Below are positions 1 through 16,382 of a DNA stretch of 64,000 nt, piece by piece. Made by a program: the position numbers and the translations under genes. This DNA comes from an uncultured Clostridia bacterium. Its GTDB lineage: Bacteria > Bacillota > Clostridia > Christensenellales > UBA1242. Within the stretch, counting starts at the first letter, position 1; each line of letters starts with the position of its first letter. Below the pieces are notes generated by a model, which saw nothing but the letters and a program-made list of their open reading frames with translations, was not told the origin of the DNA and ran no database searches. The stretch lies in assembly GCA_944360075.1 (NCBI GenBank), contig CALVTE010000001.1, positions 7,054 through 71,053 of the forward strand, read 5' to 3'.

Positions 1-3000
1 TGGCCGTTTGTTGATGACAAAATTGGCTGTTTTGAAAACTATTGTGTAGTTTTTGTTTGTTTGGCTTTCCATAGAGAATGGATATCTGCCAACCGATTCG
101 CCGCTTTGCCTTGTCACCACTCCTGTGATGTCCTCTTGGGTATCGTCAAATTCAAGACCGCCTTCCACCACAAAGGAAAACTCTGGGTCCTCGTCGCCAT
201 AGGTTTTGGAAAGCTGCTGCACGCTGACTTCAAGCTGTTTAGGCAAAATTTTTAAAACTGCTTCAGAAGAATATGTGATTGTGTAGTTTGGATTGTTTTG
301 ATTGTTTAAATCATCAAGATAAATCAAATACTCGCCAACGTCTTCGCCTTGATTACGCTTTGGCTGACCAACAAGGCTCTGCCCCAAAACAATGTTGTTT
401 GCCTTGTATGTGATTTGTGGGTCTTCTTCGCCATAGACTTTGCTTAGCGATGAAATCACAATTTCAACTGGGCGCCTTTCGATTGTGATGGTGTTGTTTT
501 GATAAACAAAACTGAAATTATAGTTGCCAAGTTTTTCTCCGCTGACCACAGGCTGAGTTTGCACAACAACTGTTGATAAACCAACGTTGGTCTGTTGCAG
601 CACAGCGTCAAGTTCTAGAGCAAACTGGTCTTGCGAAAGAGTGTCTGCAAAATTGGCTTGATGCTCAACTTTTAAAGTGCCGTCGTAAACTTTGTCTAAG
701 AAAGAAATTTGAACAACGCTGTTTCTTTTTGTGATTGAAAGGTTTGCGCTGGTAAAGATGATATTGTAATTTGGATTGAAAATTGAGCCTTGCTCTATTG
801 CATACAGTCCAACATCTTCGCCCCCCACCCTGGTCAAACTTCCGCTGATAAGTTGCCCTTCAACATCGTTTTTGAGAGTATATGTCAGCTCTGGGTCGTC
901 ATCGCCATACTGCTTTGTTTGCTCTTGTGCTGTGACGTAAACATCTCTTTGCGTGATTTGACAGTTGGCTGATTGATAGATAATAGAATAATTTTTGTTG
1001 CTCAAAGTGCCAAGGTTTATGGTGTGTGAGCCCACATTATAGTCGTCAATTTGCAGCTGTCCTTGCAAGCTATCACCTTTTAAGAGCCCATCGACTGAAT
1101 AGTCAAAATCAATCTCATCGCCAAAAACTGCCACGGTCTGTTTTGCTTTGACAACAATCTTTTTTGCAACAATATTTCCTGTCAACTCTCTTTCTTGCTC
1201 AATGGTATAATTGTTTTTATCTTCCCCTTCAAGCGAGCAGGTGACTTTGACTTTTTTCATAGTTGCAGCATTGCAATCTTCAAATTCTCCTGTGATTTTG
1301 ACTGAAACGTCTTCGCCTGTGACAATGTTTGTAACTTTATAATCTGAAAAAGTTGCCGCTGTTGTTTGGTCATATTCTTTGTCCAGCACAGAAAGGTTGG
1401 AAATGCTAAGCGGACGTTTTTCAATGGTAAGATAGCGCTCTTCTTGGCTGAGAATGATGTTATAGTTGCTGTTTCGCTCATCCGTTGCCAAAGAGCCAAG
1501 GTTGATTGCATATTTTCCAATTTCCTCGCCCGCCTGACGAGACAAGCTTCCATAAAGCGACTGCCCTTCAACAAGCGCAGTTTTGTCGTATGCAAAAGAA
1601 GGGTCGGCATCGCCATAATATTTTGAAACATTTGCAGGTGTGATGGTCACATCTCGCTTTAAAATCGTGCCTGTTGCCAAAATTGAGGTCTGTCTTGTCA
1701 AAACATACAAGTTTGCATCTTCTCCTGCCAAGCTCATGTTTTCAATGCCTTCAACATCCAAAACTTTGTCTTTTCCGGCGCTGGCATTTGCAAATTTGAT
1801 TTTTAAGCCGCTCAGCCACACTTCATGTTCTTTTTCAACACCGCTAAAGTTGTAGATAACATTTTCGACATCTACATCTGTTGTTCCGTCATAAATCTTG
1901 TCTGCAACTGTGATGGAACTTATTGAAGTATCTTTTGTAAGTTTGACTTCGATTTTGTCGCCTGCGTTGACGGTATAATTTAAAGTTGCGCCGTTGCCCT
2001 TATTCTGCCCATTGACATACCAACCGCCAAAATTGAAGCCACCATTGGTTTTTTTGTTGGTATCAATGCGCAAAATCACTCTTCTGCCTTGGTTGTAAAG
2101 GCCTTCGCCTGTGATTTTTGGTGGGTTTGAGAAATCAGACTCCACTTTGACCTGCACTTTTGAAGAAGAAATCGTGAACTGGGCAAATTCTTCAAAATAG
2201 GCATTGGTGTCAAAAGAATTTTTTCGGCATTTTGCTTTTATCTCAATTTCCGCCCCTTGTGGAGCATCGCTGTTTATGTGGAGATAGTTTCCAACAATTT
2301 TTGCATACTCCTCTCCCGACACAAATTCATACTGGGCAGCGTGAATTTGTTTGCTGTAACTGAGAAGATTGCCTGTGGTGTTGCCAATTTGCAAAACGTC
2401 GTTTGAAGCATTGAGTTTGACGCTTTCGCCAGCGCTGACAATTTCTTTTTCAGAAGAAAATTCAAAGCTCTCAATTTGAGTGTAAAATTTGATTGTAGGC
2501 TGCGACAAAACAAAACTAGAATACTTGCCCACCTCGGTTTGAGACAAAGTTGTAAAACTAAATCTGATCTCAGAGCCTTGGTCGGTTGAAAGTTTTAACA
2601 AGTCGGTGCTGTAAGTTGTTTCTTGGCCGCCGTTATGTGAAGTTGTCACAGTGCAAGAGTTTGTCCCCTGCGACAAGGTCACTTTGATGTTTGATTGATT
2701 GTTGTTGTTTTTTGCTTGAAACGAAAACTCTGCTCGCACATAGAGAACGCCCTTTTCAATCAAGGCATTCATATCGCTGGTTGTGATAACAGCGCCATAG
2801 CCCGAACTGGTTTTGCCAAGCAGCAGCCCAGACGAAGATACGATTGAATAATACTTTCCGCCCTCGTCTGAGACTTTTGCGTTTTGAAGAGTTGAGTTGT
2901 TTGCGTTGTCTCGAAAATAATGCTCAGTTGCATTGCCAACAGAGGCCGTCAAAACAAATTGATTGCCTGAGATGGCTTGAATTGTGGCTTTTGTTGAGTC

Positions 3001-3090
3001 TGGCAAAACAAACAAGCCCGCGAAAAAGAATATGCTAAAAAGAGTTATTAGCAGCGAAAATAGTTTTAATGAAAAACTCTTAATCTTCAT
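1..3090 (-). CDS. Secreted/cell-surface adhesin-like protein with YDG and MBG (YGX-type) repeat domains. Only the N-terminal 1030 codons are present; the ORF continues past position 1.
   Basis: Absent from the ORF track because no stop lies in-window. The minus-strand ATG at 3090-3088 is preceded by GGAG (3100-3097). The frame stays open to nt 1 (3090 nt = 1030 codons). The N-terminus MKIKSFSLKLFSLLITLFSIFFFAG looks like a signal peptide or anchor. Hand translation shows repeated modules YGDADPSFAY (near 1600), YGDDDPELTY (near 900), YGEEDPQITY (near 430) and YGDEDPEFSF (near 190). Each is followed by G.L.R..GE.VG.Y, and they are interleaved with K.YDGT modules. This is the pattern of MBG/YDG domains in giant Firmicutes adhesins. 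Confidence 0.8.
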   Translation of the reverse strand, partial: MKIKSFSLKLFSLLITLFSIFFFAGLFVLPDSTKATIQAISGNQFVLTASVGNATEHYFRDNANNSTLQNAKVSDEGGKYYSIVSSSGLLLGKTSSGYGAVITTSDMNALIEKGVLYVRAEFSFQAKNNNNQSNIKVTLSQGTNSCTVTTSHNGGQETTYSTDLLKLSTDQGSEIRFSFTTLSQTEVGKYSSFVLSQPTIKFYTQIESFEFSSEKEIVSAGESVKLNASNDVLQIGNTTGNLLSYSKQIHAAQYEFVSGEEYAKIVGNYLHINSDAPQGAEIEIKAKCRKNSFDTNAYFEEFAQFTISSSKVQVKVESDFSNPPKITGEGLYNQGRRVILRIDTNKKTNGGFNFGGWYVNGQNKGNGATLNYTVNAGDKIEVKLTKDTSISSITVADKIYDGTTDVDVENVIYNFSGVEKEHEVWLSGLKIKFANASAGKDKVLDVEGIENMSLAGEDANLYVLTRQTSILATGTILKRDVTITPANVSKYYGDADPSFAYDKTALVEGQSLYGSLSRQAGEEIGKYAINLGSLATDERNSNYNIILSQEERYLTIEKRPLSISNLSVLDKEYDQTTAATFSDYKVTNIVTGEDVSVKITGEFEDCNAATMKKVKVTCSLEGEDKNNYTIEQERELTGNIVAKKIVVKAKQTVAVFGDEIDFDYSVDGLLKGDSLQGQLQIDDYNVGSHTINLGTLSNKNYSIIYQSANCQITQRDVYVTAQEQTKQYGDDDPELTYTLKNDVEGQLISGSLTRVGGEDVGLYAIEQGSIFNPNYNIIFTSANLSITKRNSVVQISFLDKVYDGTLKVEHQANFADTLSQDQFALELDAVLQQTNVGLSTVVVQTQPVVSGEKLGNYNFSFVYQNNTITIERRPVEIVISSLSKVYGEEDPQITYKANNIVLGQSLVGQPKRNQGEDVGEYLIYLDDLNNQNNPNYTITYSSEAVLKILPKQLEVSVQQLSKTYGDEDPEFSFVVEGGLEFDDTQEDITGVVTRQSGESVGRYPFSMESQTNKNYTIVFKTANFVINKRP

Positions 3091-3105
3091 ATTCTTCTCC
3101 TTTTT

Positions 3106-6100
3106 TTAAAATCCAAGAGCATCATCTCTTCGTGGTTGCACAATTTGATTTAAAATTGTTGTGTCGCCCTCATAGGTGTCTTGAGGTCTGATAAATGGTG
3201 TTCCATTGCCCATCAAAGTCAACATATTGAGTTTGAGCTCGCCGCTGAAAGCAATCAACGACACTGCCACATTGATCTGTCCGTCAACATAGTTGAAATT
3301 TGGATTGAGCTGACCTTTGTAAATCACTCCATTGCTTTGGAAGTCAAACAGGTTTGCAACTTTGGCAGACAGGTTGAGCACTCCAAGCATATAATAATCC
3401 TCGCCATTGTAGGTATACTTGTATTGTGAATAGTTTGTGCTGATGATATTTTTGATTTGGCTGATGATGTCGGCTGCAATATCTGACAGGCCATACTCAG
3501 CAAAGAAGGAGTTGATTGAGCCGCCTTCAAATTCGTCAAGAGTCAGCCAGTTGTAAATTCGCACGTCGCCAATCAAAGTCAACTTGCTGTCGTAATATTT
3601 ATCGGTTATGTTGACATAAACTGGCTTGAATAAAATACAGCTTAAAAGACTGCTTGCAAAAATGCTGTCTTCCACCGTGACATCTGCCACAAAGGAATCG
3701 TTTGCTTGGCTGTTTAGAATAAGTCCGCCAGCAAATGAATTGCGCAAAATGCAACCTTTGAAAGTGACTTGCGAGTTGATCACTTCTGCAAGCACGTGTG
3801 CATTTTCGATGATGGTGTTGTAAATCAGAATGTTTGTAACATGGTTGCTGATTTGCAAAATCTTGCCTTTTGAGTCAAGTTTTGACAAGGCTGCTTCGTC
3901 TTCAAATTCCCATCCACGCAAAACCACATTGTCTATGACAAGGTTGCTTCGAGTGATGTTGATTTTGTTGTAAGCCTTGTCTCCAGAAAAATCAATCATT
4001 CTGCCATTGCCATAGATGTTATAGTTAAGGCTATGGTTGAAATCTGAGTCTGTGATGGCAATATCGCTGTGCAGAACAAGCGCGCTGAAATTGTCAGTTT
4101 TTTCTTTGTTGATTTTTGCAAGTGCTTTTATGGCAATCTTATACTGCTCAAAATTGTAAACATTGATGCCGTCAACCAGATAGAATGTGTAGGAATCCCA
4201 AACCACATTTGCACCTTCATAAGGTTGAACTTGCGGAGCTGTGATGGTCACAACACCACTGCCCTTGATGGTGACAACACCATTTTGGTCAACGGTTGCA
4301 ATGTCTTCGTCACTTGAAGACCATTCGATTTGCCCAGCAAAGTCCTGCCCACTAGGCTTGGTCGAATATTCCATCACATACTGATTGCTCAGTTTGCCCA
4401 AATCATCCACGAACCTGTTTGCAAACACGCGATACTTGCCATGACCATACTTTTCATCGCCGTCGTTGACGTCAAGTTTCAAACTGATATCGGTGATTTT
4501 TGCATAGAAAGTGAAAGTTTTGCTGTAAGAAATGCCAGTGCCATCAACGGAAATCGTCACTTTGACCTGCCCCGCCTTTTTGCCGCGCAAAACCCAGTGC
4601 AGTTTATCTTGTTGAGCCAGTGAAGCCACCGACTCGTCGCTAAGAGCGAATGAATAGGTATAGCCATCGGCGTAGATTGGTTGTGGGTTGACTTCAAGCA
4701 CCACATAATCTGTTGCATACATGGCATCTCGCGGTGCAGAGAAGGATATGTCTTTGATATTTCTTGTATACTCAATGGTGATTTGTTTTGAAATGGCTGG
4801 ATTGCTCTCAAGGCGAATTGTTATCACAACGGTGCCATAACCGCTGAACGACACACCTCCAAAGGTGTCAACCGTGGCAATAGACTGATCGCTAGAGCTA
4901 TAGACGAGAGTTTTGTTTGAGGCATCTGTTGGAAGAACGCTCGTCTGGATTTGATAGCCTGCCGAAGAAACGTAAACTGGCCCTTCTTCCACCACAATGT
5001 CTGTGGCCTGGCGATTTACAACAATGGTGTAAGTGCCTACAGAGATATTGTTTGCAGAAAGTGTGAAAATTGCTTGACCGCCGTTAAGCGCTTTGATAAG
5101 ACCATTTTCAAAACTGAAAACTGGTTTTTGTTCGTCATTTCGCTCTTCTGTGAGCGTGGTCAAACTCAGCGAAACGTTTTTGTTGTCTTTTGGCACAAAA
5201 CTTTCAAGACTGAGCTGAACTTGCGCCCCTGCATCAAGTCTTAAAACTCCACTATCAAAGGCTTGCAGATTGAGATTTGCTTCGAGCAAAGTATAGTCGC
5301 CTGTGTAATTGAAAATATAGGAAACTGATTTTTCGCCACTGGTGTTGTCTCTGCTTGTGAATGTTATTGTCACAATGCCCGGTTGCTTGAAAGTGATCAC
5401 TCCTTCTTCAACAGAGGCAATGTTTGGGTTGGAAATGAAAACGTCGACCTCTTGGTTTGAGGCATCTGCTGGTGAAATAACGGTGTCAAAGAAAAGCTTG
5501 CTCTGACTGGTCACGTAGCCAATTTGATAGAATTGCAACTCCTGTTCAAAGTCGATGTCAATCCCTTCGACCGGCGTGTTGACTGTCACCGTGCAATCTG
5601 CAAAAATCTCTTCGCCCAAAGAATTTTGGCTATAAGCTCTTATGACAGCACTTCCGCCATAAAGACCTTTGACAAGGATTGTTGAGCCGCTTTGACTGAT
5701 TGAAACCACATCGTTTTGGCCGCCGCCAACTGCAGACTGAGAAAGAATTTTGAAGTGAATATCTTTGTTTGTTGCGTCAAGCGGATAAGTTTGAGTCACA
5801 AAAAGCGAGAAGGACGAGCCTTTTGCAAGGGGTTTTGAATCAACATTCAAAGCAATGCTGCTTAAGTAGCCCATCGTGCTTGTCACACTGACCTGCTTGT
5901 GCAAATTGCTGCCATCCATTGTCGAGATGGTCACAACAACTGTTCCTGCAGACGAGAAAATCACTTTGTTGCCTTCAAGCCTTGCAAAGTCCACCTTTTC
6001 AATTTGATAAGAAAGTGTTTTGTCTGTTGCGCTGTTTGGATAAGCTGTTGCGTTTATAACAGCTGAAGATGATGCAGTGACAATGTTTTCTTCGCTCACA

Positions 6101-9100
6101 ACAATGGATGTCACCTTTTTGATAACGTTGATGGTGATATCATAAGTAAGCCCGTTTGAAAGTTCAAGACGAATGTTGCTGAAGCCGCCATTCAAAGCAG
6201 TTATAGTCAAATTTTTGTCGATGCTGACCACATTGACACCTGTTGTGTGATTTGTTTCTCTTATCAAAATTCGCTTGTTGGTAGTGTCGCTTGGCGTCCA
6301 TTTGGTCACTTCTATTGTGATGCTGTCGCCAACGTTGAGCAGAACTTCTTTGCTCTGGTTGATTTGAGCGTCAAGTGCATCGCCGCCTGTATACCTAAAC
6401 TTAAAGGATTTTGCAACGTTTCCATCACTTGAAGAAACTTCTATTGTCAAAATGCCAGCGCCAATCCAGTGAAGTGTTTTTGTTTGCTCATCGATATCGG
6501 CAATTTCTTGCGCCTCACCGTTTGAATTGTATGAGCTGGTGATTTTGTAGTTGAGCGCCGCTTCTATCACTTCTCCCTTAGACTTGGCATCAAAATTTAG
6601 AGAGGTCAAGTCGGTTGCTGTGACCAAATAGCCGTTGTATTGCTCAAGCTCTCCTGCATAGATAATGTCGTCGACAAGTTGCTCGATAATTATTGCAATT
6701 TGATAGCTCTCTATCATGCCACCCGCTTGGTCATACAAAGTGCAGATGATTTGACACTGACCTTTTTTCAGCGCCTGCAAAATATCTCCATCGATGGAAA
6801 GAAGGTCGCTGCCAGAACTTTGAGCAAATTGGATTTCAAGATGATGATAATCATTGCCCACAGAAGCAAAATCAAGTTTGATTTGACCGCCCACATACAT
6901 TTTTATTTCACCTTGAGTTGGGTCAACAATCTCAATGCCTTCAGCAATCTTTTCAATGGTGAAGAGATAGGTCTTTTCTGGGTCATCTTGGCTTATCGCA
7001 ACAATTTGTGCAACGCCGTTTTGAAGGAAATATAGACTTGTGCCTTCAATATATGCAATTTCTGGAGTAAGCACCTGGAAAACAACATCCTTGTTTGTGG
7101 CATCCACAGGCAGCACGTTTGCTTGCAAAGTCAACATACTGTTTGTGGTGGTGATGTTTGACGGAGTCACTTCAATCGAGTCAACATTTTGATAAACGTT
7201 GATTTCGAAAGTCAAAATCACTGTGGTGGAAACATAAACTGTCAAAGTTGCCTTTCCGCCCGCCACCGCGGTTATGGTTGAGCCCTCTGTTGTCAAAACT
7301 TTGCCTTGCGGACTTGCCGTCTGCTGATTTGAAACGGAAAGCGAAATATTGCGATAGATGCTGTTTGACGGAAAGACTTCTTTGATTGCAACTTCAAACT
7401 GGTCGCCTGCATTTAAGGTTTGCGGCATTGACTGCACCTTGCCATCAACAAGCACACCCACCTGGGCAGAAATAGGATAAGAACCTGTGTATCTGACGCT
7501 GACGCTTTCTGAGTAGCCAGACGTTGTTGTGGCGATAAGTTTTACAAGACCAGACTGGTTAAACCTAAGGGTGTCTCCCAAAATCACTCCCATGTTTTTG
7601 TCGTCAAGCGACCATGTTATGGTTTTGTTGGTGGCATCAGCTGGAAGGCAAGAAGCCGAGAAAGAAAGAGTGTTGAGCGCCGTCACGTATTCTCCATTTT
7701 GCATTTCAAGGTCAAGCAAAATTTCGATATCTTCAACTTCGCGCAAAACTTCAACTTCAAGCTCATAAGATGCTTTTTGTCCGTCAAGCAAAACCAGCGA
7801 GACTTGCACTTGCGCTTTGCCACCGCCAATTCCACGCAGACTGCCATCTGGCAAAATTTCAACAACCTGACCTCTGCCTGCATTGCTTGTTTGACTCAAA
7901 ATTTCAACTTGCACAGCGTTGGCATTTGCATTGCTTGGAAAAACGCTGTAATCAATAACGGACGAAGAGCCATAATCCATAACAATTTTTTCTTGGTTTA
8001 GCACAAAAGTTTTAGCCTTTCCAGCGGTATATTGCACTGAAACGGTTGTAGAGATGTTGCTGTAATCTTTATTTGCAAAAATTTTGATTGTTGCAGTGGT
8101 TGGATTGTCAGTCAAGAAAGTGACATCGCCGTCCTCGTTGACAGAAACTTCATTTGATGATGAATGATAAAAGAATTTGTTGTTTGTGGAGTCTTCTGGG
8201 AAAGACCTTGGCCTGAGAGTGACTGTTTTGTCAGCCGTGACAACATCTTCAATCAAAATGCCTGTTGCAGGGCTTTCAACATAGACCGCGATTTGCTCGG
8301 TGATATACACCCCTTCAGCCTTTTCAACTGAAACTGTGATTGTTGCATCGCCGCCACTGAAAAAGTATAGATAGCCATCTTTGACATAGGCCACATCTTC
8401 GTTTGAAGACGAGAAGGATACCTCTGTGCTTGTGAGATAGCTTGGCTCTACTGTGTAGTCAATGATTTGTGCAGCATCTCCAAGGGTGGCTGTGATGGAA
8501 TATTTTTCAAGTTGCAAGCTGTGAGCATAACCTGCCGTATAAACCACCGTCATGGTTTTGCTAAAACCGCCGTCAACAGTGGTCAAGGTGACCTCCACCT
8601 GCCCCGCACGGCTAAATGAAACTTGCCCAAGACTATTGACCGTTGCAATGCTTTGGTCATCAAGCTGGAAAATCACATTCTTGTTGGTGGCATTGCTTGG
8701 CAAAATTTGATAGCCTATTGAATATGTGCTCTCACCAGTGATGGCATAGGATGTGTTTAAAACAATGTCTTCCACCGGCCGTGTTACAGACAGATTGACA
8801 AAATCGCTATAGCCTCCATCCTCGGTGGTGGCTGAGATTGTGACGTATCCAATTTTTAAGGCTGTAACCAGTCCGTTTTGGTCAACCTCGGCAATACTCT
8901 CATCAGAAGAAGAGAAAATCACGTTTTTGTTTTCTGCCTCATATGGCGAAATTTCCCACGATAGTTGCAAATTTGAGCCAACGTGCATCTCCTGCTGTGG
9001 ACTGCTCAGTTCAATCTGGTGAACTCTGCTGTCAGTCACGTAGAAATAGCAACTTGCTGTTTTGTTGCCGTCAACTGCTGTTGCAGTGATGTATCCCCGA

Positions 9101-9378
9101 CCAAACCCCACAAAAGAAACATTTCCGTCAAGGTCAACTCTTGCAACTTCTTCATTTGTGCTTTGCCAAATCACTTCTTGATTTGTGGCGTTTGTTGGAT
9201 AGATGGTTGCTTCAAGCGAAATGGTCTCGTCGATATTTGCAGTGATTTCGCTTCGATCAAGCTCGATTCTGTCAACAGCAATAGAAACATTGCCAACCAC
9301 AATATCCATTGTGAAGTTGACCAGAATAATGATTACGAGTGGAATTGCCACCATTAAAAATATCATCAGTTTTTTCAT
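3106..9378 (-). CDS. Giant membrane-anchored surface protein with about 17-19 bacterial Ig-like (Big_2) domains and a C-terminal beta-helix-like domain.
   Basis: 2090-aa ORF. The N-terminal hydrophobic segment is MKKLMIFLMVAIPLVIIILVNF. There are many tandem modules with the Big_2 signature, e.g. IYPTNATNQEVIWQSTNEEVARVD, ILPSNATNKNVIFQLDDQSIATVN and VLPTDASNKTLVYSSSDQSIATVD. The last ~420 aa contain short repeated turns (NITRSNLVIDNVVLRG, NILIYNTIIENAHV, VTFKGCILRNSFAGGLIL, VTVEDSIFASS) suggestive of a right-handed beta-helix. The start overlaps the upstream permease stop by 4 nt. Confidence 0.85.
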   Translation of the reverse strand: MKKLMIFLMVAIPLVIIILVNFTMDIVVGNVSIAVDRIELDRSEITANIDETISLEATIYPTNATNQEVIWQSTNEEVARVDLDGNVSFVGFGRGYITATAVDGNKTASCYFYVTDSRVHQIELSSPQQEMHVGSNLQLSWEISPYEAENKNVIFSSSDESIAEVDQNGLVTALKIGYVTISATTEDGGYSDFVNLSVTRPVEDIVLNTSYAITGESTYSIGYQILPSNATNKNVIFQLDDQSIATVNSLGQVSFSRAGQVEVTLTTVDGGFSKTMTVVYTAGYAHSLQLEKYSITATLGDAAQIIDYTVEPSYLTSTEVSFSSSNEDVAYVKDGYLYFFSGGDATITVSVEKAEGVYITEQIAVYVESPATGILIEDVVTADKTVTLRPRSFPEDSTNNKFFYHSSSNEVSVNEDGDVTFLTDNPTTATIKIFANKDYSNISTTVSVQYTAGKAKTFVLNQEKIVMDYGSSSVIDYSVFPSNANANAVQVEILSQTSNAGRGQVVEILPDGSLRGIGGGKAQVQVSLVLLDGQKASYELEVEVLREVEDIEILLDLEMQNGEYVTALNTLSFSASCLPADATNKTITWSLDDKNMGVILGDTLRFNQSGLVKLIATTTSGYSESVSVRYTGSYPISAQVGVLVDGKVQSMPQTLNAGDQFEVAIKEVFPSNSIYRNISLSVSNQQTASPQGKVLTTEGSTITAVAGGKATLTVYVSTTVILTFEINVYQNVDSIEVTPSNITTTNSMLTLQANVLPVDATNKDVVFQVLTPEIAYIEGTSLYFLQNGVAQIVAISQDDPEKTYLFTIEKIAEGIEIVDPTQGEIKMYVGGQIKLDFASVGNDYHHLEIQFAQSSGSDLLSIDGDILQALKKGQCQIICTLYDQAGGMIESYQIAIIIEQLVDDIIYAGELEQYNGYLVTATDLTSLNFDAKSKGEVIEAALNYKITSSYNSNGEAQEIADIDEQTKTLHWIGAGILTIEVSSSDGNVAKSFKFRYTGGDALDAQINQSKEVLLNVGDSITIEVTKWTPSDTTNKRILIRETNHTTGVNVVSIDKNLTITALNGGFSNIRLELSNGLTYDITINVIKKVTSIVVSEENIVTASSSAVINATAYPNSATDKTLSYQIEKVDFARLEGNKVIFSSAGTVVVTISTMDGSNLHKQVSVTSTMGYLSSIALNVDSKPLAKGSSFSLFVTQTYPLDATNKDIHFKILSQSAVGGGQNDVVSISQSGSTILVKGLYGGSAVIRAYSQNSLGEEIFADCTVTVNTPVEGIDIDFEQELQFYQIGYVTSQSKLFFDTVISPADASNQEVDVFISNPNIASVEEGVITFKQPGIVTITFTSRDNTSGEKSVSYIFNYTGDYTLLEANLNLQAFDSGVLRLDAGAQVQLSLESFVPKDNKNVSLSLTTLTEERNDEQKPVFSFENGLIKALNGGQAIFTLSANNISVGTYTIVVNRQATDIVVEEGPVYVSSAGYQIQTSVLPTDASNKTLVYSSSDQSIATVDTFGGVSFSGYGTVVITIRLESNPAISKQITIEYTRNIKDISFSAPRDAMYATDYVVLEVNPQPIYADGYTYSFALSDESVASLAQQDKLHWVLRGKKAGQVKVTISVDGTGISYSKTFTFYAKITDISLKLDVNDGDEKYGHGKYRVFANRFVDDLGKLSNQYVMEYSTKPSGQDFAGQIEWSSSDEDIATVDQNGVVTIKGSGVVTITAPQVQPYEGANVVWDSYTFYLVDGINVYNFEQYKIAIKALAKINKEKTDNFSALVLHSDIAITDSDFNHSLNYNIYGNGRMIDFSGDKAYNKINITRSNLVIDNVVLRGWEFEDEAALSKLDSKGKILQISNHVTNILIYNTIIENAHVLAEVINSQVTFKGCILRNSFAGGLILNSQANDSFVADVTVEDSIFASSLLSCILFKPVYVNITDKYYDSKLTLIGDVRIYNWLTLDEFEGGSINSFFAEYGLSDIAADIISQIKNIISTNYSQYKYTYNGEDYYMLGVLNLSAKVANLFDFQSNGVIYKGQLNPNFNYVDGQINVAVSLIAFSGELKLNMLTLMGNGTPFIRPQDTYEGDTTILNQIVQPRRDDALGF

Positions 9379-10988
9379 GCTTCAATGCTCCTGTATCTTT
9401 TTTCAAGTTTGAAGAAAAGTGCAAACAATTCAATTGCCATAAACGGCACACCAAAACCAAACAGAACAATGTAAATGGCAGGAACAGACACAAACATCGA
9501 AACTGCAATTGCGCCAATGCCCATCAAAACTGCAATAACAAAACCGATTGTGATGCTTGCGTTGACATTTCCGTTTGTTGTGGTGACCTCTTTGCCGTCA
9601 AGGAACATAAACTGCGGACGCCTTATATCGAGATTGATTGAACTTGCGATTGAGCCAATCACAATCATGCACACGGCAAGAGCAATCAGCATGGCATTTG
9701 AGTAAGACAAAAATCCTGCAAAAGAAAGCACAAGGCAGCTTATGATGACGGATGGAATTGAAACCAGCACATACATCAAAAACTTGACCACAATTTGTTT
9801 GGTGAAAGAAACTGGAATGATTTTTGTGTGAAAGAAATTGCCGCCTTCTCTTGTGATTGAAGTTGCAGCAAAAGATGTGCCCATGCTTAAAAACATCAAC
9901 AGCACAAGCACAGCAATGCCCGGCAAAACGCCAGTGCCCACCTGTTCAACGCCAATGTTTGAGGCAATCTGACTTGAAAAGAAAACCATCAGCGGAGTGG
10001 TGATCACGATAGTCAGATATTGAAAAGAATAGTTTGTTGAACGAAAAATGCAAAGAAATTCTCGGAAAAACAAAGCCTTCGACACCGAGCGCTCTTTGAT
10101 TTTTGTTTTGTTGCGATAGATGCTTCCGCCACTTTCAATGTTTTTGAGCAGCAGGTTGAGATAAGACTTTTTTGCAAAAATATAAACCAAAAGGCAAAGC
10201 ACAAGGGCAACCGTTAAATTTACCACCGCGCTTGGCCAAAAACGATACAAAAGCAAACTGTTTTTAAACAGTAATGGCAAATATAGAAAGTTTGAAATAA
10301 ACTTGATATCCAGCACCACCTGACTTTGCAAAATGGAAGAAACATCGGAAGAGCTCATCACTTCCATGAAAAATTTTAAGCCGTAGGTGTAAACTGTAAA
10401 GCCTGCTGCCACGCAAATGATGTAAAGCACAAGCATAACCACAAATTTGTTTTTAAGATAGCCCACCACATACATTGCAGGCACAGACAAGAGCACGCCG
10501 CACAAAAATGGTATCACCGGCAGAAAGATAAGGTTTGGCAAAAGCATAATGTAAAACATTGCCCCTTGCATGGTTTGCACGCCATAGATGATAAAGATAG
10601 GCAAAGTCAAAAAAGTGGTAAAAATAAATTCATAAATAAACAGATATGTGATTTTTGCAAGAAAAATCGTTCGTCCGCTGAGTGGCAATTTCAAAAGGTC
10701 GGAGTCGGAATTATAAAAAAGCGTTTTTGTTGTCAGACTAAGCCCAAAAAACAGCTGCACAATTTGAACAAGACAGCTATAGTAAACAATAAACTCTTGA
10801 GCAAGGTCGGCTTTGACGCAAATTGAAATCAAATTGCTGAAAACATAAACCAAAGCTCCGCCAATGGCCACAACACCCAAAATGGTGATAAGATATTTTA
10901 TCAATTTGGAAAAAATATGCCCCTTTACTCTTATTTTTGGTGCACGATTTAAAAATTCAAGTTTTAAAAGCGTCAAAAATTGGGTCAT
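9375..10988 (-). CDS. Polytopic membrane protein, putative ABC exporter permease partner.
   Basis: 537-aa ORF that is hydrophobic throughout, with roughly 12 or more predicted TM stretches by eye. GGAG lies 4 nt upstream of the ATG. It sits 15 nt downstream of an ABC ATPase gene and overlaps the next gene by 4 nt. Confidence 0.7.
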   Translation of the reverse strand: MTQFLTLLKLEFLNRAPKIRVKGHIFSKLIKYLITILGVVAIGGALVYVFSNLISICVKADLAQEFIVYYSCLVQIVQLFFGLSLTTKTLFYNSDSDLLKLPLSGRTIFLAKITYLFIYEFIFTTFLTLPIFIIYGVQTMQGAMFYIMLLPNLIFLPVIPFLCGVLLSVPAMYVVGYLKNKFVVMLVLYIICVAAGFTVYTYGLKFFMEVMSSSDVSSILQSQVVLDIKFISNFLYLPLLFKNSLLLYRFWPSAVVNLTVALVLCLLVYIFAKKSYLNLLLKNIESGGSIYRNKTKIKERSVSKALFFREFLCIFRSTNYSFQYLTIVITTPLMVFFSSQIASNIGVEQVGTGVLPGIAVLVLLMFLSMGTSFAATSITREGGNFFHTKIIPVSFTKQIVVKFLMYVLVSIPSVIISCLVLSFAGFLSYSNAMLIALAVCMIVIGSIASSINLDIRRPQFMFLDGKEVTTTNGNVNASITIGFVIAVLMGIGAIAVSMFVSVPAIYIVLFGFGVPFMAIELFALFFKLEKRYRSIEA

Positions 10989-11003
10989 TTTTTCTCCATT
11001 TTT

Positions 11004-12137
11004 TTAGTCGTTTTTGTTTTTCTTTTCTTCCGATTTTTCTGTTTCTTGTTCAACTGCCGACAACTTTTTGTTTAGAGTTTTTATCCAAGATTGTATGTTT
11101 TTCTTATAGTTTTCGTCCAGTTGTTTTTTGAAATCCTTTTCTTTGGTTTTGATTGATTGGATTTCTTCTTTTGCCTGTCGCTTTTCTTTTTTGATGGCCT
11201 GAAGTTGAAGAGCTTGCTTTTCTTTAAGCTGCTTTTGCAACTGTTGTCTTTCTTTTTTGGCCTGTCGCTCTTTTTCTTTTATCGCCTTTATTTGCAAAGC
11301 ATTTTGCTCTCTGTTTTGCTTGTGGAGCGCTTGAATTTCTTGCCTTTTTTTCTCTTTTTCAGCCTTGATTTTTTTCTTCGTCTCTTTTTTGTCTTCAAAT
11401 TTTATCACTTGAGCCTTGCTGTCTTTGGTCATATTTAAAAAGTATGTTTCAAGCGGAACTGAACTTTCTGCCATAAATTTTTTCACGTCGATGATTTCCA
11501 TCAGCTGCCCACGATTCATGATGGCAACTCTGTCGCAAAGTTTTTCCACCATGTCGATGTTGTGAGAAGAAAAGAACACGCAGTTGCCCTGCTTTTTATG
11601 CTCTTTCATATACTCTCTGATTTCAAAAGTGCTTTGCGGGTCAAGCCCCATAAGCGGCTCGTCAAGCACCCAAAATTTTGGATTATGTATAAGAGCTGCA
11701 ATAATGCAGATTTTTTGTTTCATACCATGTGAATAAGAGCGAATTTGGTTGTCTATTGCATGGCTCATGCTGAACAAGTTTGCAAATTTTTCTATTCTTT
11801 CTTCGATGATGTCTTTTGGCACTTTGTAGATATTGCCCATATAGTTGACATATTCTCTGCCTGTCAAGTTTTCATAAACGGCATGGTTGTCTGGCACATA
11901 GCCGATGTTGAGTTTGGCCTCGATTGGATTTTTTTGAATGTCATAGCCGCAAACTTTGATTGAACCTTCATCAAAAGGCAAAATGCCGGTCAGACATTTG
12001 ATGGTGGTGCTTTTTCCTGCGCCGTTTTTGCCAAGAAAGCCAAAAATCTCCCCTTCCTCAAGAGTAAGGTTGAGATTTTTCACAGAATAGAAATTTGAAT
12101 TTTTATATCTTTTTGTGAGCCCTACAATTTCTAACAT
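11004..12137 (-). CDS. ABC transporter ATP-binding protein (ABC-2/DrrA-like) with a ~130-aa Lys/Glu/Gln-rich C-terminal extension.
   Basis: Walker A GKNGAGKST, signature YSHGMKQK, Walker B FWVLDEPLMGLD and H-loop SSHN. After about residue 245 the sequence becomes KE/Q-rich, with the internal repeat ALQIKAIKEKERQAKKE / ALQLQAIKKEKRQAKEE. Confidence 0.9.
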   Translation of the reverse strand: MLEIVGLTKRYKNSNFYSVKNLNLTLEEGEIFGFLGKNGAGKSTTIKCLTGILPFDEGSIKVCGYDIQKNPIEAKLNIGYVPDNHAVYENLTGREYVNYMGNIYKVPKDIIEERIEKFANLFSMSHAIDNQIRSYSHGMKQKICIIAALIHNPKFWVLDEPLMGLDPQSTFEIREYMKEHKKQGNCVFFSSHNIDMVEKLCDRVAIMNRGQLMEIIDVKKFMAESSVPLETYFLNMTKDSKAQVIKFEDKKETKKKIKAEKEKKRQEIQALHKQNREQNALQIKAIKEKERQAKKERQQLQKQLKEKQALQLQAIKKEKRQAKEEIQSIKTKEKDFKKQLDENYKKNIQSWIKTLNKKLSAVEQETEKSEEKKNKND

Positions 12138-12247
12138 AAATTCCCCTTGTTAAAACCGCAAAAATTTTAACACAAATTGCTCTAAAAGTCAATACATAAT
12201 TTTTATTATTATAATAAATACATATGTGATAGTTTTAAAAAAGCCTA

Positions 12248-12275
12248 TTGACGGCACGCCAAATTTGGGTATAAT
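12248..12275 (+). promoter_or_regulatory. Sigma-A-type promoter candidate for the 12294 gene.
   Basis: TTGACG (12248-12253), a 16-nt spacer, then TATAAT (12270-12275), 19 nt upstream of the ATG region. Confidence 0.5.
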
Positions 12276-12293
12276 AGAATTAAGGAACAACAT

Positions 12294-14042
12294 ATGAAGA
12301 AAAAATATAGAAACTTTCAGGTAAATTATGGCTATCAAAATCTTAAGGCTTACAAGGCTCTGCCCAGTGAGCATCGGCAGAATTTTTTGAAAGATTTGGA
12401 AAATTTTGCTCTGCACCCACTGATAAATTGTGACAACAGATGGATTTTGTTTTTTGACGATATGAACGAGAAAGACTTTTTTCAAACTCTTGCCAAACAA
12501 GATGTTGTGGGCGCTTTTTCATCTTGCCTTGCACAGCTTAACAGCAATCTTAAAACTGCAAAAGAAAGGCTGGAGACTTACAAAGCCTCAAAAAATGAAG
12601 CAAAAATCAGAAAATATGACAGAAAAATCGCAAATTTGCTGTCAGAAAAAGAAATTTTGCTTGCAGAGACTGAAAAATGCTTGCAGGGCAAACAAATCCA
12701 CATTGCCATTGACGCAAACAATATCTGTGAAAAATACATAAACAACCTCATCAGACTTTGCGACAAACTTTACCGCCAAGGCTATCATGAAATCAAAATT
12801 TTGGTAGCATCTTCTGACAAATCGGTTGACTCAAAAATTGAATATTACTACACTGGCAGACAGCTTGACCAACTGTCAAAACTTCAAGAAAAACTTGACT
12901 TTTACAACAAAAACAATGGCGAAAAGTGCCAACTGAGATTTTGCGAACTGTTGCAAGTGCCAAATTCTCGCCAAGAATATCAGTCACTTTGGACGCTGAA
13001 AAGTGTGAAAAAGGCAAACGAGTTTGTGGAAGAGATCAGAATCACGTCAGAAAACAAAAAACTTACGCCGCTTGAGGCTGCCCTGTTTGCCTATCTTAAA
13101 ATTGCTGGCAGTTTTTTCTACAAAGATGGCGGCCTGTATGACGAAGGCGAACAAACAATGATTGGTGCTTTCTCAGAAAAAGAAGTTGTCTCTTGTGCTG
13201 GTTTTTCTTCTTTATTCAAAATCGCCATCGACGTTTTGGGCAAAGATAATCTTTCTTCGCACTTTGTTGCAACCGAAAACTTTTTTAATGGGCATTGTTT
13301 CAACATTCTCAAAATCATCGACCCTGCCTATAAAATAAAGGGTTTTTATGCTGTGGACGCGCTCAAAGACGCAAAAGAAACAAAAAATTCCACTGCAACT
13401 GGCTTTTCTGGCTTTTTGTCTAGGTTTAATGATTCTCTTTACAGTCCAGACTCCTTTTGGTCGCTCATACTGCCAAATTCAAGAATAGACCAAATTTGTT
13501 ATTCTTTTTCCAGCAGCTTAAAAACTCATACTCACCAAGCCAGAAATCTTCCAAGCGGCAAGCTCAAAAGTTTTGTTGACCAAAAACTTTCTGAAAAAGA
13601 CGAGTTTGTCTCGCTTTATGATGACTCTTGCAATCCTGTGCATTATAAGAGCATTTTGTCTGCCTATCTGAACATGGCAAACAAAATCGGATTTGCTGTA
13701 GACTTTCAGCATTTGGCCGCAATGGTCACTCGCACCTGCATTGATTGTTTGTTGAGCGCCCCATGCAACAGCGTTTCGCCATGGCTTGAACTGCTGGACA
13801 TTGAAAAAATAAAAGAAGATTTTGAAACAAAAGAAAAAGACGATTTTTCACAAAGCGAAATTGATCAACATGTGAAGAAAAAAAATTTAGAGCCGCTATT
13901 TGAATTTTATTCGACAGACAATTTGTATGAAAAAATCTGCCAGGCAAAGGATAATGAAAAATATTTTTCAAAAAAATATTTTGAAACGCTTGAAAAGTTA
14001 AAACAGCTGACCACTCAACTTAACCATGAAATCCAAAGATGA
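12294..14042 (+). CDS. Hypothetical protein with an N-terminal coiled-coil region and a possible transglutaminase-like/papain-fold Cys-His-Asp core.
   Basis: 582-aa ORF, one of the few on the plus strand. The segment EKEVVSCAGFSSLFKIAIDVLG...NGHCFNILKIIDPAYKIKGFYAVDA has the spacing C...H...D seen in transglutaminase-like cysteine protease cores. The assignment is by eye only. Confidence 0.6.
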   Translation: MKKKYRNFQVNYGYQNLKAYKALPSEHRQNFLKDLENFALHPLINCDNRWILFFDDMNEKDFFQTLAKQDVVGAFSSCLAQLNSNLKTAKERLETYKASKNEAKIRKYDRKIANLLSEKEILLAETEKCLQGKQIHIAIDANNICEKYINNLIRLCDKLYRQGYHEIKILVASSDKSVDSKIEYYYTGRQLDQLSKLQEKLDFYNKNNGEKCQLRFCELLQVPNSRQEYQSLWTLKSVKKANEFVEEIRITSENKKLTPLEAALFAYLKIAGSFFYKDGGLYDEGEQTMIGAFSEKEVVSCAGFSSLFKIAIDVLGKDNLSSHFVATENFFNGHCFNILKIIDPAYKIKGFYAVDALKDAKETKNSTATGFSGFLSRFNDSLYSPDSFWSLILPNSRIDQICYSFSSSLKTHTHQARNLPSGKLKSFVDQKLSEKDEFVSLYDDSCNPVHYKSILSAYLNMANKIGFAVDFQHLAAMVTRTCIDCLLSAPCNSVSPWLELLDIEKIKEDFETKEKDDFSQSEIDQHVKKKNLEPLFEFYSTDNLYEKICQAKDNEKYFSKKYFETLEKLKQLTTQLNHEIQR

Positions 14043-14068
14043 TAAGCAAAAAAGGCTTATCATTTTTT
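14041..14068. terminator. Bidirectional hairpin shared by the convergent 12294 gene and murC.
   Basis: GATAAGC (14041-14047), loop AAAAAAG, GCTTATC (14055-14061), followed by ATTTTTT. It overlaps both stop codons. Confidence 0.55.
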
Positions 14069-15412
14069 AAATCGATAGGCAAGAAGAGAGACATCGCCAG
14101 CCCCCATAATCAGAAAAACAACGTCTTTTTGTGCAATTTTGTTTATAAAAGCATGGCATTTTTCGAAATTTGAAAAATATCTGACAGTTTTGTTATATTT
14201 TGAAACACCTTTGGCCAAAAATTTTGATGTGATTTTTGGGATAGGTTTTTCACGAGCAGAATAAATTGGCAAAAGCCATACTTCATCGCAGCAGGCAAAA
14301 CAGCGGCAAAATTCATAATACAAATCACGAGTGCGAGAAAAGGTGTGAGGCTGAAAAACACAAATCAACCTGCCCTGAAAGTTTTGTTTGACTGCCTTTA
14401 TTGTTGCAATAATCTCGTCTGGATGATGAGCGTAGTCATGCAAAACAACTCCGCCTTTAACCTTTCCGATATACTCCAGCCTTCGCTCCACCCCAGCAAA
14501 TTGCCAAAGCGATTGTTTGATCAGGTCAAGGCCTATGCCACAAGCAATGCCCACCGCTATGGCTGCAAGAGCATTGTAAACATTGTGCAGCCCAATCATA
14601 TTCAACTTGAAAAGCCCAAAATTTAAGTCTAAGTAAAACAGCTCAAAACAAATCACTCCATTTTTGCTGCAAACATTTCTTGCCTGCACATCCGCTTTGC
14701 TTTTGAGTGCATAAGACAAAACATTTCGACTTTTCAGCCTTCGCGAAAAAGGGTCGTCATAGTTTACCACCAAAACCCCACTTTTTTTGGTGTTTTTTGC
14801 AAATTTTTCAAAGGATTTATAATAATTTTCTTTGGTTTTAAAATAATCTAGGTGGTCGGGGTCTTCATTTAAAACAACCCCCACATCGCTTTCAAGGCTC
14901 AAAAAACTGTCTTTATACTCACACGCCTCAGTGATAAAAAATTTGCCTTTGCCGCACCTGACATTGCTGCCAAAATTTTTCATGATGCCGCCAACGTGAA
15001 TGACTGGGTCCTTTTTTGCCAAAAAAAACATATAGCCGATCATGGAAGAGGCTGTGGTTTTGCCATGGCTGCCAGCGATTGAAATCGTAAAATATTTTTT
15101 TGTAAGTTCTCCAAGAAGCTCTGACCTTGAAAGAATGATTTTGCCTTGCTTTATGGCGTGTTCAAGCTGCACGTCATTTTTTGCCAAAGCACTTGTGTAG
15201 ACAACAATATCGGCTTGGTCTATCAAATTTGTGTCCAGTTGGTTGACCACCTTGATGCCTTTTGCCTGCAAAGACTGTGTGATGGGCGATATGGCGCTGT
15301 CATACCCCGTCACTTTTTTGCCCTGTTTCAGCAAAATGACTGCCAGCGCCGAAAGGCTTATGCCACCAATGCCCAAAATATGTATTTGCTTTGCCTCGTC
15401 AATAAAATTCAT
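14060..15412 (-). CDS. murC: UDP-N-acetylmuramate--L-alanine ligase.
   Basis: MNFIDEAKQIHILGIGGISLSALAVILLKQGKKVTGYDS is a Mur ligase N-terminus, and ISIAGSHGKTTASSM is the P-loop. The track ORF (541 aa) carries a 91-codon non-homologous extension. I place the start at the internal ATG at 15412, giving 450 aa. Confidence 0.9.
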   Translation of the reverse strand: MNFIDEAKQIHILGIGGISLSALAVILLKQGKKVTGYDSAISPITQSLQAKGIKVVNQLDTNLIDQADIVVYTSALAKNDVQLEHAIKQGKIILSRSELLGELTKKYFTISIAGSHGKTTASSMIGYMFFLAKKDPVIHVGGIMKNFGSNVRCGKGKFFITEACEYKDSFLSLESDVGVVLNEDPDHLDYFKTKENYYKSFEKFAKNTKKSGVLVVNYDDPFSRRLKSRNVLSYALKSKADVQARNVCSKNGVICFELFYLDLNFGLFKLNMIGLHNVYNALAAIAVGIACGIGLDLIKQSLWQFAGVERRLEYIGKVKGGVVLHDYAHHPDEIIATIKAVKQNFQGRLICVFQPHTFSRTRDLYYEFCRCFACCDEVWLLPIYSAREKPIPKITSKFLAKGVSKYNKTVRYFSNFEKCHAFINKIAQKDVVFLIMGAGDVSLLAYRFKK

Positions 15413-15499
15413 ATAAACACTATATGAGTTGACATAGCAAAAAAGTGCTTTGGCAAAAAGTAATTTAACAATAAGGGTGCAACTTTCATATATTTGACT

Positions 15500-16363
15500 A
15501 TGATGAAAAAAGAAGCTTGGCTCGCCCCTTTGACAAGTGTTGGCATTGGCGGGGCCTGCCTTGGAATATTTTTGCCGAAAACAAATGAAGAGCTTGTTGA
15601 TATTGTTGAAAAACTGCAGCAGCAAAATCTTCCATATAAAGTGATTGGAAATGGCACGAATTTGCTTTTTAGTGACGATTTTCATCCTTTTTTTGTGATT
15701 TCAACAAGAAAAATCGCAAAAAAAATGTCAAAAAAAGATAATTTTGTCAAATTATCCTCATCTACCACGTTGTTTGAAGCCTATCAATTTTGTATGAAAA
15801 ATGGTCTGAGCGGCTTTGAAAAACTTTGCTCTATACCCGGCAATATTGGCGGAGCGATTGCAAGCGGAGCAAGTTGTTATGGCTGCAGCATTTTTGATTA
15901 TCTTGAAAAATTAACTATTTTTCAGCGCGGAAAAATCGTTGAAATAGGCAAAAATAAAATTGATTGTGGCTATCATCACTCGGAATTTTTGAAAAACAAT
16001 TTTCTCAGCCCCACAGTCATTTTGTCGGCAAAGTTTAAGCTGCAAAAAGATCAGCCTTGCAAAATTCAAAAAACTTATTTAAACATTTGCTCAAAAAGAA
16101 GACTATCTCAGCCTGCAGGCAAAAGTTATGGCTGCACTTTTAAAAATCCAGAAGGCCAAAGTGCTGGATTTTTGCTTGAAAAAAGTGGCTTAAAAGGTCA
16201 AAGCTGTGGCGGAGCGAAAATTTCTGAAAAACACGCGAATTTTATAATCAACTCTGATAGTGCAAGGTTTGAAGATTTTGAATATCTTATAAACCTTGCA
16301 AGAAAAAAAGTCGAAGAAAATTTTGGAATAACTCTTGAAAACGATGTGGAAATAATAAAATAA
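15500..16363 (+). CDS. murB: UDP-N-acetylenolpyruvoylglucosamine reductase.
   Basis: The N-terminal FAD-binding-type segment is LAPLTSVGIGGACLGIFLPKTNEELVDIVEKLQQQNLPYKVIGNGTNLLFSDD. The C-terminal segment is GCTFKNPEGQSAGFLLEKSGLKGQSCGGAKISEKHANFIIN. The gene is divergent from murC. The start is taken at the first ATG (15500) rather than the TTG at 15494. Confidence 0.9.
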   Translation: MMKKEAWLAPLTSVGIGGACLGIFLPKTNEELVDIVEKLQQQNLPYKVIGNGTNLLFSDDFHPFFVISTRKIAKKMSKKDNFVKLSSSTTLFEAYQFCMKNGLSGFEKLCSIPGNIGGAIASGASCYGCSIFDYLEKLTIFQRGKIVEIGKNKIDCGYHHSEFLKNNFLSPTVILSAKFKLQKDQPCKIQKTYLNICSKRRLSQPAGKSYGCTFKNPEGQSAGFLLEKSGLKGQSCGGAKISEKHANFIINSDSARFEDFEYLINLARKKVEENFGITLENDVEIIK

Positions 16364-16382
16364 AATCGCAAAAAATGCGATT

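Follow-up and report, generated by a model that had tools for sequence, protein, structure and literature searches.

Why should an ATP-binding cassette (ABC) ATPase and a polytopic permease share a gene string with two very large surface proteins? The locus that raises this question lies at one end of a 64,000-nucleotide stretch (hereafter, the window) of contig CALVTE010000001.1, from an uncultured Clostridia bacterium, in which four consecutive genes on the minus strand encode the ATPase, the permease, a giant protein composed of an N-terminal membrane helix, a stalk of immunoglobulin (Ig)-like domains and a C-terminal head, and an adhesin with MBG/YDG repeats. The list of open reading frames (ORFs) and their translations placed these genes 15 nucleotides, −4 nucleotides (an overlap) and 15 nucleotides apart, exactly as described in an earlier note made from the sequence, which had also proposed that a dedicated ABC module is coupled to a stalk-plus-head protein. 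We found that the ABC pair and the N-terminally anchored Ig-stalk/beta-helix fibre form a conserved and so far undescribed pairing, and the operon is best explained as a conserved apparatus for cell-surface fibres in uncultured gut Clostridia.

When each GTDB species was represented by a single genome, a scan returned 48 loci with orthologues of the permease (41–91% identity), all in metagenome-assembled genomes of uncultured gut Clostridia, which came from human, mouse, rabbit and other samples. The ATPase gene directly preceded the permease gene in 46 of 46 informative loci, and an orthologue of the giant (2050–2158 amino acids) directly followed it in 45 of 45; with the permease as the query, this gene-neighbourhood search thus never returned an orthologous permease without its giant. 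The junction between the two genes was tight, the start codon of the giant lying −4 to +3 nucleotides from the permease stop codon in 39 of 44 loci, and the Shine–Dalgarno motif for translating the giant, AGGAG or GAGG at 8–11 nucleotides before the ATG, sat inside the 3′ end of the permease gene. The adhesin followed the giant in 34 loci; the sole clade without it was the most divergent one (L057, L003 and L004), in another member of which (L046) the sequence downstream of the giant was too short to judge. The genes flanking the operon differed among the three loci whose neighbourhoods we listed, so that the four genes seem to travel together. No glycan-synthesis gene, solute-binding protein, membrane-fusion protein or sortase signal accompanied the operon, either in the window or in the inspected related neighbourhoods. 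Of the earlier suggestion that the locus might be an export, anchoring or glycan-processing apparatus, the coupling of ABC module and fibre is supported and glycan processing is not established, there being no glycan-synthesis genes in the inspected neighbourhoods; the role of the module would lie among export, anchoring and regulation.

The strongest clue to what the ABC pair might act on came from the pattern of conservation within the giant. Among 38 orthologues, the N-terminal helix (MKKLMIFLMVAIPLVIIILVNFT) ranked first of 2067 sliding 24-residue windows, and residues 1–24 were 72% identical, compared with 42% for the protein overall. Conservation dropped outward from the membrane, from 61% in the first Ig domain and 53% in the second to 27–47% in the distal domains and 37% in the head. 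Third codon positions in the helix were not unusually conserved (0.43–0.47, versus 0.47–0.53 elsewhere), which rules out a nucleotide-level constraint and indicates selection on the peptide rather than on the RNA. The signal peptide and C-terminal helix of the adhesin were poorly conserved by comparison. Cleavable signal peptides, such as that of the adhesin, do not show conservation of this kind. A proline-containing, sequence-specific helix followed by conserved membrane-proximal domains points to a specific membrane partner, for which the co-encoded and translationally juxtaposed permease, with which the helix would be in physical contact, is the obvious candidate. The N-terminal hydrophobic segment (residues 1–35) was also the sole terminal membrane helix of the giant, and is best explained as an uncleaved helix that would hold the protein in the membrane.

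Beyond the anchor, the giant matched Big_2 (PF02368) with an E value of 3e-62 (206.9 bits, compared with a cut-off of 22.8), and an iterated Big_2-like hidden Markov model (HMM) resolved 19 Ig domains at residues 28–1716, at the upper end of the 17–19 estimated previously. The same 19 domains were detected in 33 of the 38 orthologues, with 18–20 in the others, even though overall identity dropped to ~29%. Within the giant, the domains were only 23% identical to one another and no tandem repeats were present in the DNA, so a recently expanded repeat array was rejected as the origin of the stalk. The stalk is instead a fixed set of positionally orthologous domains, which, given the typical dimensions of Ig domains, would extend about 70 nm. 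We found no LPXTG motif in the C-terminal part of the giant and none in the full-length adhesin orthologues described below, in line with the earlier statement that neither of the two giant proteins shows such a signal in its visible part, and anchoring by sortase was rejected on this basis.

At the far end of the stalk, an AlphaFold2 (AF2) model of the C-terminal head, made with an alignment from an exhaustive homologue search, was confident (predicted local distance difference test, pLDDT, 91.2; predicted template-modelling score, pTM, 0.90) and showed a right-handed parallel beta-helix that carries a helical insert and ends in a beta module. The top Foldseek matches, with 7xks, 2pyh and 4nk6 among them, were themselves right-handed parallel beta-helix proteins, comprising pectate lyases, the alginate epimerases AlgE4 and AlgG, GH110 and phage tailspikes, at probability 1.0 and E values of ~1e-3, with template-modelling (TM) scores of only 0.3–0.4 and ~11% identity. 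At the sequence level, the head had no Pfam or PDB match. Most of its invariant residues were G, N, Y or P, which are typical of structural positions in a beta-helix and do not establish an enzymatic head; only three near-invariant polar residues, D101, R106 and E143 (head numbering), stood out as candidates for catalysis. Thus, of the 'enzyme head' anticipated from sequence, the beta-helix was borne out by the model, and enzymatic activity was not established, the likeness to enzymes being at the level of the fold only. We think that the head probably binds glycan and possibly cuts it. Relatives of the head were few, with 65 identified when 1.84 billion representative proteins were searched exhaustively; almost all of these relatives were either giants of ~2050–2100 amino acids or Big_2-head proteins of 400–900 amino acids. 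Neither of the two outcomes named beforehand as refutations of the proposal, an orthologous permease lacking the giant or a C-terminal domain lacking the beta-helix fold, therefore occurred.

The ATPase was readily classified. It matched PF00005 (ABC_tran) with an E value of 5e-29 (102 bits, compared with a cut-off of 25) and carried intact motifs, with Walker A (GKNGAGKS) at residue 36, the signature (YSHGMKQ) at 135, Walker B (FWVLDE) at 155 and the serine–histidine dipeptide of the H-loop at 191, all of which mark it as an ABC nucleotide-binding domain (NBD). Its nearest NCBIfam models were DrrA and GldA, each scoring below its own cut-off, and the closest solved bacterial NBDs were those of TM0544, NosF (E 1.7e-36), Rv1218c and LptB, which together place it, as judged by sequence, with the DrrA/ABC-2/type V kind. 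In 46 related loci the orthologues were 65–95% identical in the NBD. The orthologous ORFs ranged from 241 to 524 amino acids, the K/E/Q-rich tail (window positions 11004–11420) being absent, present or longer depending on the species; in the protein described here, the ~140-residue tail is probably a coiled coil.

The permease was harder to place. Against PF16949 (ABC_tran_2) it scored 19.2 bits, below the cut-off of 25.7, and its second half (residues 310–445) weakly matched ABC2_membrane_4 (E 0.012), while some of its orthologues and distant relatives carried precomputed matches to PF16949 or PF09847 (12TM_1). A search for homologues found 116, and a profile search of PDB sequences returned nothing meaningful. 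Half-length Foldseek matches of a poor AF2 model, none of them significant, included CcmB, PmtD, NosY, KpsM and ABCG, at probabilities of 0.8–0.97, and the fused Rv1217c; those of higher probability, likewise non-significant, were all membrane domains of type V ABC systems. These signals weakly suggest a divergent, fused ABC-2-like membrane protein, whose extracellular loops appeared short from both hydropathy and the poor model. At the C terminus of the permease, the conserved residues ..RY..IEA (window positions 9375–9400, and the equivalent site in 44 loci) coincide with the Shine–Dalgarno sequence of the giant gene, and their conservation may be partly imposed by that translation signal.

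The pairing recurred among much more distant permeases. At 30–33% identity, three of the four relatives that we inspected preceded short-stalk proteins (~795–934 amino acids) with the same anchor. In one of these (L064; permease identity 31–33%, homology supported by hhalign at probability 100 and E 1.4e-61), the ATPase and permease genes were followed by one anchor–Big_2–head protein of 795 amino acids; in another (L067), by one anchor–Big_2 protein of 934 amino acids; and in the third (L066), a single ATPase–permease pair was followed by three tandem anchor–Big_2 paralogues of 905, 844 and 838 amino acids. Two of the three paralogues (positions 9654–17468 of L066 cover the set) matched the head profile and the third had only a weak match to Pfam Beta_helix, which suggests that heads are swapped within the family. 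A search seeded with the 795-amino-acid protein of L064 gave more than 1000 matches, and of 120 short-stalk relatives listed, 110 had the anchor motif and 111 matched the head profile. The motif shared by the giants and these distant relatives was MKKxxIxxxxx[IV]P[LIV][IV][IV], and the only name given to members of the family in database entries was 'Ig-like domain-containing protein'. Taken with the gene order in 45 of 45 loci and the tight junction, this recurrence with short stalks strongly supports the coupling of a dedicated ABC module to a stalk-plus-head protein that had been proposed from the window. Abundant proteins of ~965–970 amino acids with the anchor motif and head (P0203–P0299) fell into dozens of clusters at 90% identity, on contigs of up to 1.28 Mb, and probably come from one common organism.

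The fourth gene of the operon, which encodes the adhesin, runs past the end of the window. Its translated part matched MBG_2 (PF18676; E 6.5e-66, 219 bits) and YDG (PF18657; E 2e-24, 86 bits), both with cut-offs of 25, and a profile search of PDB sequences with the N-terminal domain found no relative. A scan of metagenomes with that domain brought up two contigs on which the adhesin gene is complete; the whole operon is present on one of them (L059). The full-length orthologues (1733 and 1734 amino acids in L059 and L060) end in a membrane helix and a lysine-rich tail. The giant and the adhesin are therefore predicted to be anchored at opposite termini, with each presenting its distinctive domain distally. 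The adhesin is an accessory component of the system and does not occur in the most divergent clade.

Several of the related loci departed from this layout or held further large proteins. In L003 and L004 (positions 11626–18003), which are two separate records, the giant is divided into a 192-amino-acid ORF, comprising the anchor and two Ig domains, and a 1921-amino-acid ORF. Either the gene is truly split, or a frameshift or an assembly error common to both records may account for the division. The same two loci encode a protein of 2829–2833 amino acids without Pfam matches near the operon. A few kilobases upstream of the operon in L005 (positions 1–6745) lies another giant of 3330 amino acids, without Pfam matches, followed by a 269-amino-acid protein and a separate ABC_tran and ABC2_membrane pair; this may be a second pairing of a giant protein with an ABC pair in the same lineage.

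Table 1. Positions of the operon's genes, of the domains of the giant protein and of the candidate promoter within the window.
Feature	Position	Strand	Description
ABC ATPase	11004..12137	minus	377 amino acids; NBD at about residues 1-240, then a K/E/Q-rich C-terminal tail of about 140 amino acids
Permease	9375..10988	minus	537 amino acids; about 12 membrane helices (hydropathy), putative fused ABC-2-like membrane domain
Giant protein	3106-9378	minus	2090 amino acids; N-terminal membrane helix, 19 Big_2 domains and head
Membrane anchor of giant	9307..9378	minus	Residues 1-24, MKKLMIFLMVAIPLVIIILVNFTM; start codon overlaps the permease stop codon by 4 nucleotides
Stalk of giant	4186..9297	minus	Residues 28 to about 1731; 19 tandem divergent Big_2-like Ig domains (iterated HMM)
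Head of giant	3109..4185	minus	Residues 1732-2090 (about 355 amino acids); C-terminal; AF2 model and Foldseek (PDB, BFVD)
Adhesin, 5′ part	1..3090	minus	1030 codons; signal peptide, unique N-terminal domain of about 390 amino acids, start of repeat rod; runs past the window
Promoter-like site	12164..12192	minus	TTGACT, 17 nucleotides, TG-extended TAAAAT; consensus match only (consensus scan)

How might these parts work together? The reading that we favour, to which we would give somewhat less than an even chance, is that the ABC-2 module acts on the anchor of the giant to deploy or control the fibre. The ATPase and the 12-helix ABC-2-like permease would form a transporter-like motor, the client of which would be the conserved anchor helix and membrane-proximal Ig domains rather than a small solute. 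ATP hydrolysis would be used to insert the fibre, to extract it and hand it over, or to pass it through the envelope or wall; a near variant of this idea is that hydrolysis would switch the conformation or state of the fibre. The 19-Ig stalk would then project from the membrane with the beta-helix head at its tip, its length fixing how far out the head would meet glycan, and the MBG/YDG rod would be held the opposite way round, by its C-terminal helix. Precedent for such an activity exists in that some ABC modules of the ABC-2/type V kind work on partner proteins, with structures from NosDFY and CcmABCD among the neighbours of the ATPase and the permease. In L066, where a single ABC pair is followed by three clients, the arrangement fits a module that recognises its clients and favours a client-handling role over a fixed one-to-one machine.

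Other observations weigh against this reading. The AF2 model of the permease was weak (pLDDT 59), and Foldseek returned no match for it at E ≤ 0.001. Among the distant relatives, the permease gene of L006 (30% identity) was followed by a patatin gene and had no Big_2 neighbour, and four loci with classical PF16949 permeases (L007–L010; 23–25% identity) contained plain ATPase–permease pairs, also with no Big_2 neighbour. Conversely, two proteins of the short-stalk family appeared to have no adjacent ABC pair: P0160 (852 amino acids), which has the anchor and follows feoAB on a short contig, and P0151, which stands alone on a 3-kilobase contig. The coupling to an ABC pair in the anchor–Big_2–head family is thus frequent, and perhaps not universal. 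For a protein with an N-terminal signal anchor, Sec/YidC could in principle suffice for insertion, and with 19 Ig domains between the head and the membrane, mechanical control of the head is hard to picture.

A bolder form of the proposal, which we regard as doubtful at present, is that the ABC-2 pair and the MKKxxIxxxxxIPL anchor together constitute an unrecognised ATP-driven system by which monoderm Clostridia deploy or actuate membrane-anchored Ig-stalk/beta-helix fibres, and hence a new class of protein-handling ABC systems, be it for secretion and assembly or as a surface motor. The length of the stalk would then be set genetically in each lineage, at either ~4–6 or 19 Ig domains.

The same exceptions lend some support to a more ordinary explanation, which we consider unlikely, in which the ABC-2 pair exports a small molecule, lipid or antimicrobial and shares an operon with the fibre because both belong to a common envelope or colonisation programme, without any contact between them. 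The PF16949/PF09847 family does occur as stand-alone ATPase–permease pairs in unrelated contexts, Rv1217c/Rv1218c, to which Foldseek hinted as the nearest fused 12-helix analogue of solved structure, was deposited as an efflux pump, and the anchor of P0160 stands without a neighbouring pair. An exporter that never touches the fibre leaves unexplained, however, why a membrane helix should be the most conserved part of the giant, why the stop and start codons should be kept in juxtaposition, and why the pairing should persist from 91% down to 31% permease identity despite varied flanks and stalk lengths.

Conservation of the anchor and of the first two Ig domains would fit equally well with a stable complex that has no role in biogenesis, in which the ABC module stays on the anchor as a mechanotransducer or sensor, altering the state of the fibre or sensing load or ligand, with ATP driving its extension, release or shedding in the manner of FtsEX–PcsB or NosDFY. 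The type V systems NosDFY and CcmABCD among the structural neighbours are compatible with such a complex, and a fixed 19-domain stalk suggests a calibrated length. Nevertheless, this explanation has, in our estimation, only a small chance of being right: the tandem clients of L066 argue against a strict one-to-one machine, the extracellular loops of the permease are short, transmission of force through 19 Ig domains is implausible, and no sensor kinase or regulator was linked to the operon in the window or the inspected neighbourhoods.

The fold of the head brings in a third explanation, in which the ABC-2 module exports a glycopolymer (a lipid-linked polysaccharide or one like teichoic acid) that the head trims, epimerises or cleaves outside the cell, as AlgG and AlgE do. 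ABC-2 transporters are the classical exporters of glycopolymers, and AlgE4, AlgG and pectate lyases were among the best fold matches of the head. We nonetheless consider this quite improbable, as the listed neighbourhoods contained no glycosyltransferase or polymer-synthesis genes, the head would sit ~70 nm from the exporter, and its likeness to these enzymes is at the fold level only (TM scores of 0.3–0.4) in the part of the giant where conservation is lowest (37%). Moreover, the glycan exporters known so far are homodimers of 6-helix subunits rather than fused proteins with 12 helices. Finally, an incidental adjacency of genes with unrelated functions, for which the sole argument is that ABC genes are common in the genomes of Firmicutes at large, is effectively refuted by a gene order kept in 45 of 45 loci across species, hosts and flanks, by its distant recurrence and by the stop/start juxtaposition, leaving it next to no probability.

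If the ABC module does act on the anchor, it would join a small group of ABC modules that act on partner proteins, namely CcmAB on CcmE, NosFY on NosD, LptB2FG with the anchor helix of LptC, and LolCDE. The closest parallel in logic is NosDFY, in which an ABC-2 ATPase and permease are likewise co-encoded with an extracytoplasmic right-handed beta-helix protein and act on that partner, and NosY gave a half-length fold match to the poor permease model (probability 0.89, target-normalised TM score, TMt, 0.53) that was not significant. However, NosY is a 6-helix homodimer, unlike the fused 12-helix permease, and NosD docks straight onto NosY. In the giant, by contrast, 19 Ig domains lie between the beta-helix and the membrane, in which the protein has an anchor of its own. 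The head had no Pfam match to NosD (PF05048), NosD was not among its top 50 fold matches, and the window contained no nos genes. With neither a NosD signal nor a nos context, and with its fused permease, the locus is not a member of the NosDFY family, and the resemblance is one of logic only.

CcmAB(CD)–CcmE and LptB2FG–LptC are similar in concept, in that a non-canonical ABC cycle involves the N-terminal membrane helix of a partner. CcmB was the fold match of highest probability for the poor permease model (7f02_B, probability 0.97, at an E value of 0.34), and LptB was a close relative of the NBD. The membrane subunits nevertheless showed no kinship at the level of sequence, and the partners here are fibres of 800–2100 amino acids in monoderm Clostridia, rather than a haem chaperone or a bridge for lipopolysaccharide. 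FtsX and MacB permeases have 4 membrane helices and a large extracytoplasmic domain; the permease, with ~12 helices, short loops and no Pfam match to FtsX or MacB_PCD, is not of this type VII kind.

Giant RTX/Ig-like adhesins rich in Ig-like domains also adjoin dedicated ABC transporters in type I secretion systems, such as LapA with LapBCE and SiiE with SiiCDF. Those systems differ in using an exporter with fused transmembrane and nucleotide-binding domains, a membrane-fusion protein, a TolC-like channel and a C-terminal signal, whereas here the NBD is a separate protein. Export of this sort was rejected, there being no fused exporter and no genes for membrane-fusion or outer-membrane proteins in the window or the related loci, and the giant having an N-terminal anchor and a beta-helix at its C terminus. 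The C-terminally or sortase-anchored fibrillar adhesins of Gram-positive bacteria resemble the system in their tandem Ig-like or MBG stalks with a distal functional domain; they differ from it in that the proteins described here lack LPXTG, the giant has its anchor at the N terminus and a fixed set of 19 old, divergent domains, and a dedicated ABC pair is present. The head shares its right-handed parallel beta-helix with the pectate-lyase superfamily (PL1/3/9, AlgE/AlgG and tailspike depolymerases). It differs in having no sequence-level match and TM scores of only 0.3–0.4, and no catalytic constellation, such as the Ca-binding Asp with an Arg/Lys base of PL1/3/9 or the DPHD-type motif of epimerases, was identified. 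A literature search found no description of the pairing of ABC module and fibre, nor of a function for PF16949 or PF09847.

As regards expression, the promoter-like site lies ~27 nucleotides upstream of the ATPase start codon and is followed by an AAGGGGA ribosome-binding site, and a scan of the minus strand found no terminator-like hairpin between the four genes. Tandem Repeats Finder found no DNA tandem repeats in the operon, and Rfam and tRNA scans of the window gave no matches. Outside the operon, the window holds core chromosomal genes of a spore-forming Clostridia bacterium, namely those for Era, YbeY, YqfD, FloA, EF-Tu, EF-G, LigA, PcrA, SpoIVA, Der and ComEC. Divergent from the promoter region of the operon is a 582-amino-acid gene (12294–14042, plus strand) with a single weak match to a P-loop NTPase (NPHP3_N, E 2e-4), which may be a STAND-like NTPase. 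Further proteins of note lay on the minus strand: a second large protein of 1377 amino acids (22888–27021), unannotated except for a weak match to the Ig-like Big_13 near its C terminus; a 290-amino-acid protein built of WG_beta_rep repeats (28241–29113; E 6e-25); and two ORFs of 508 amino acids (50495–52021) and 186 amino acids (19173–19733) that had no Pfam match at the thresholds used.

If the ABC module indeed handles the fibre, it would add a Gram-positive fibre-handling system to the few ABC 'transporters' that act on partners (CcmAB, NosFY, LolCDE and FtsEX), and would explain how a widespread group of uncultured gut Clostridia, present in human, mouse and rabbit samples, comes to display long surface fibres without sortase signals. 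A functional assignment would also annotate many of the more than 1000 genes of the family, and would point to determinants of host or glycan binding in gut colonisation. The stalk of 19 strictly conserved domains, in turn, would offer a clean system in which to ask why the length of a fibre is under selection.

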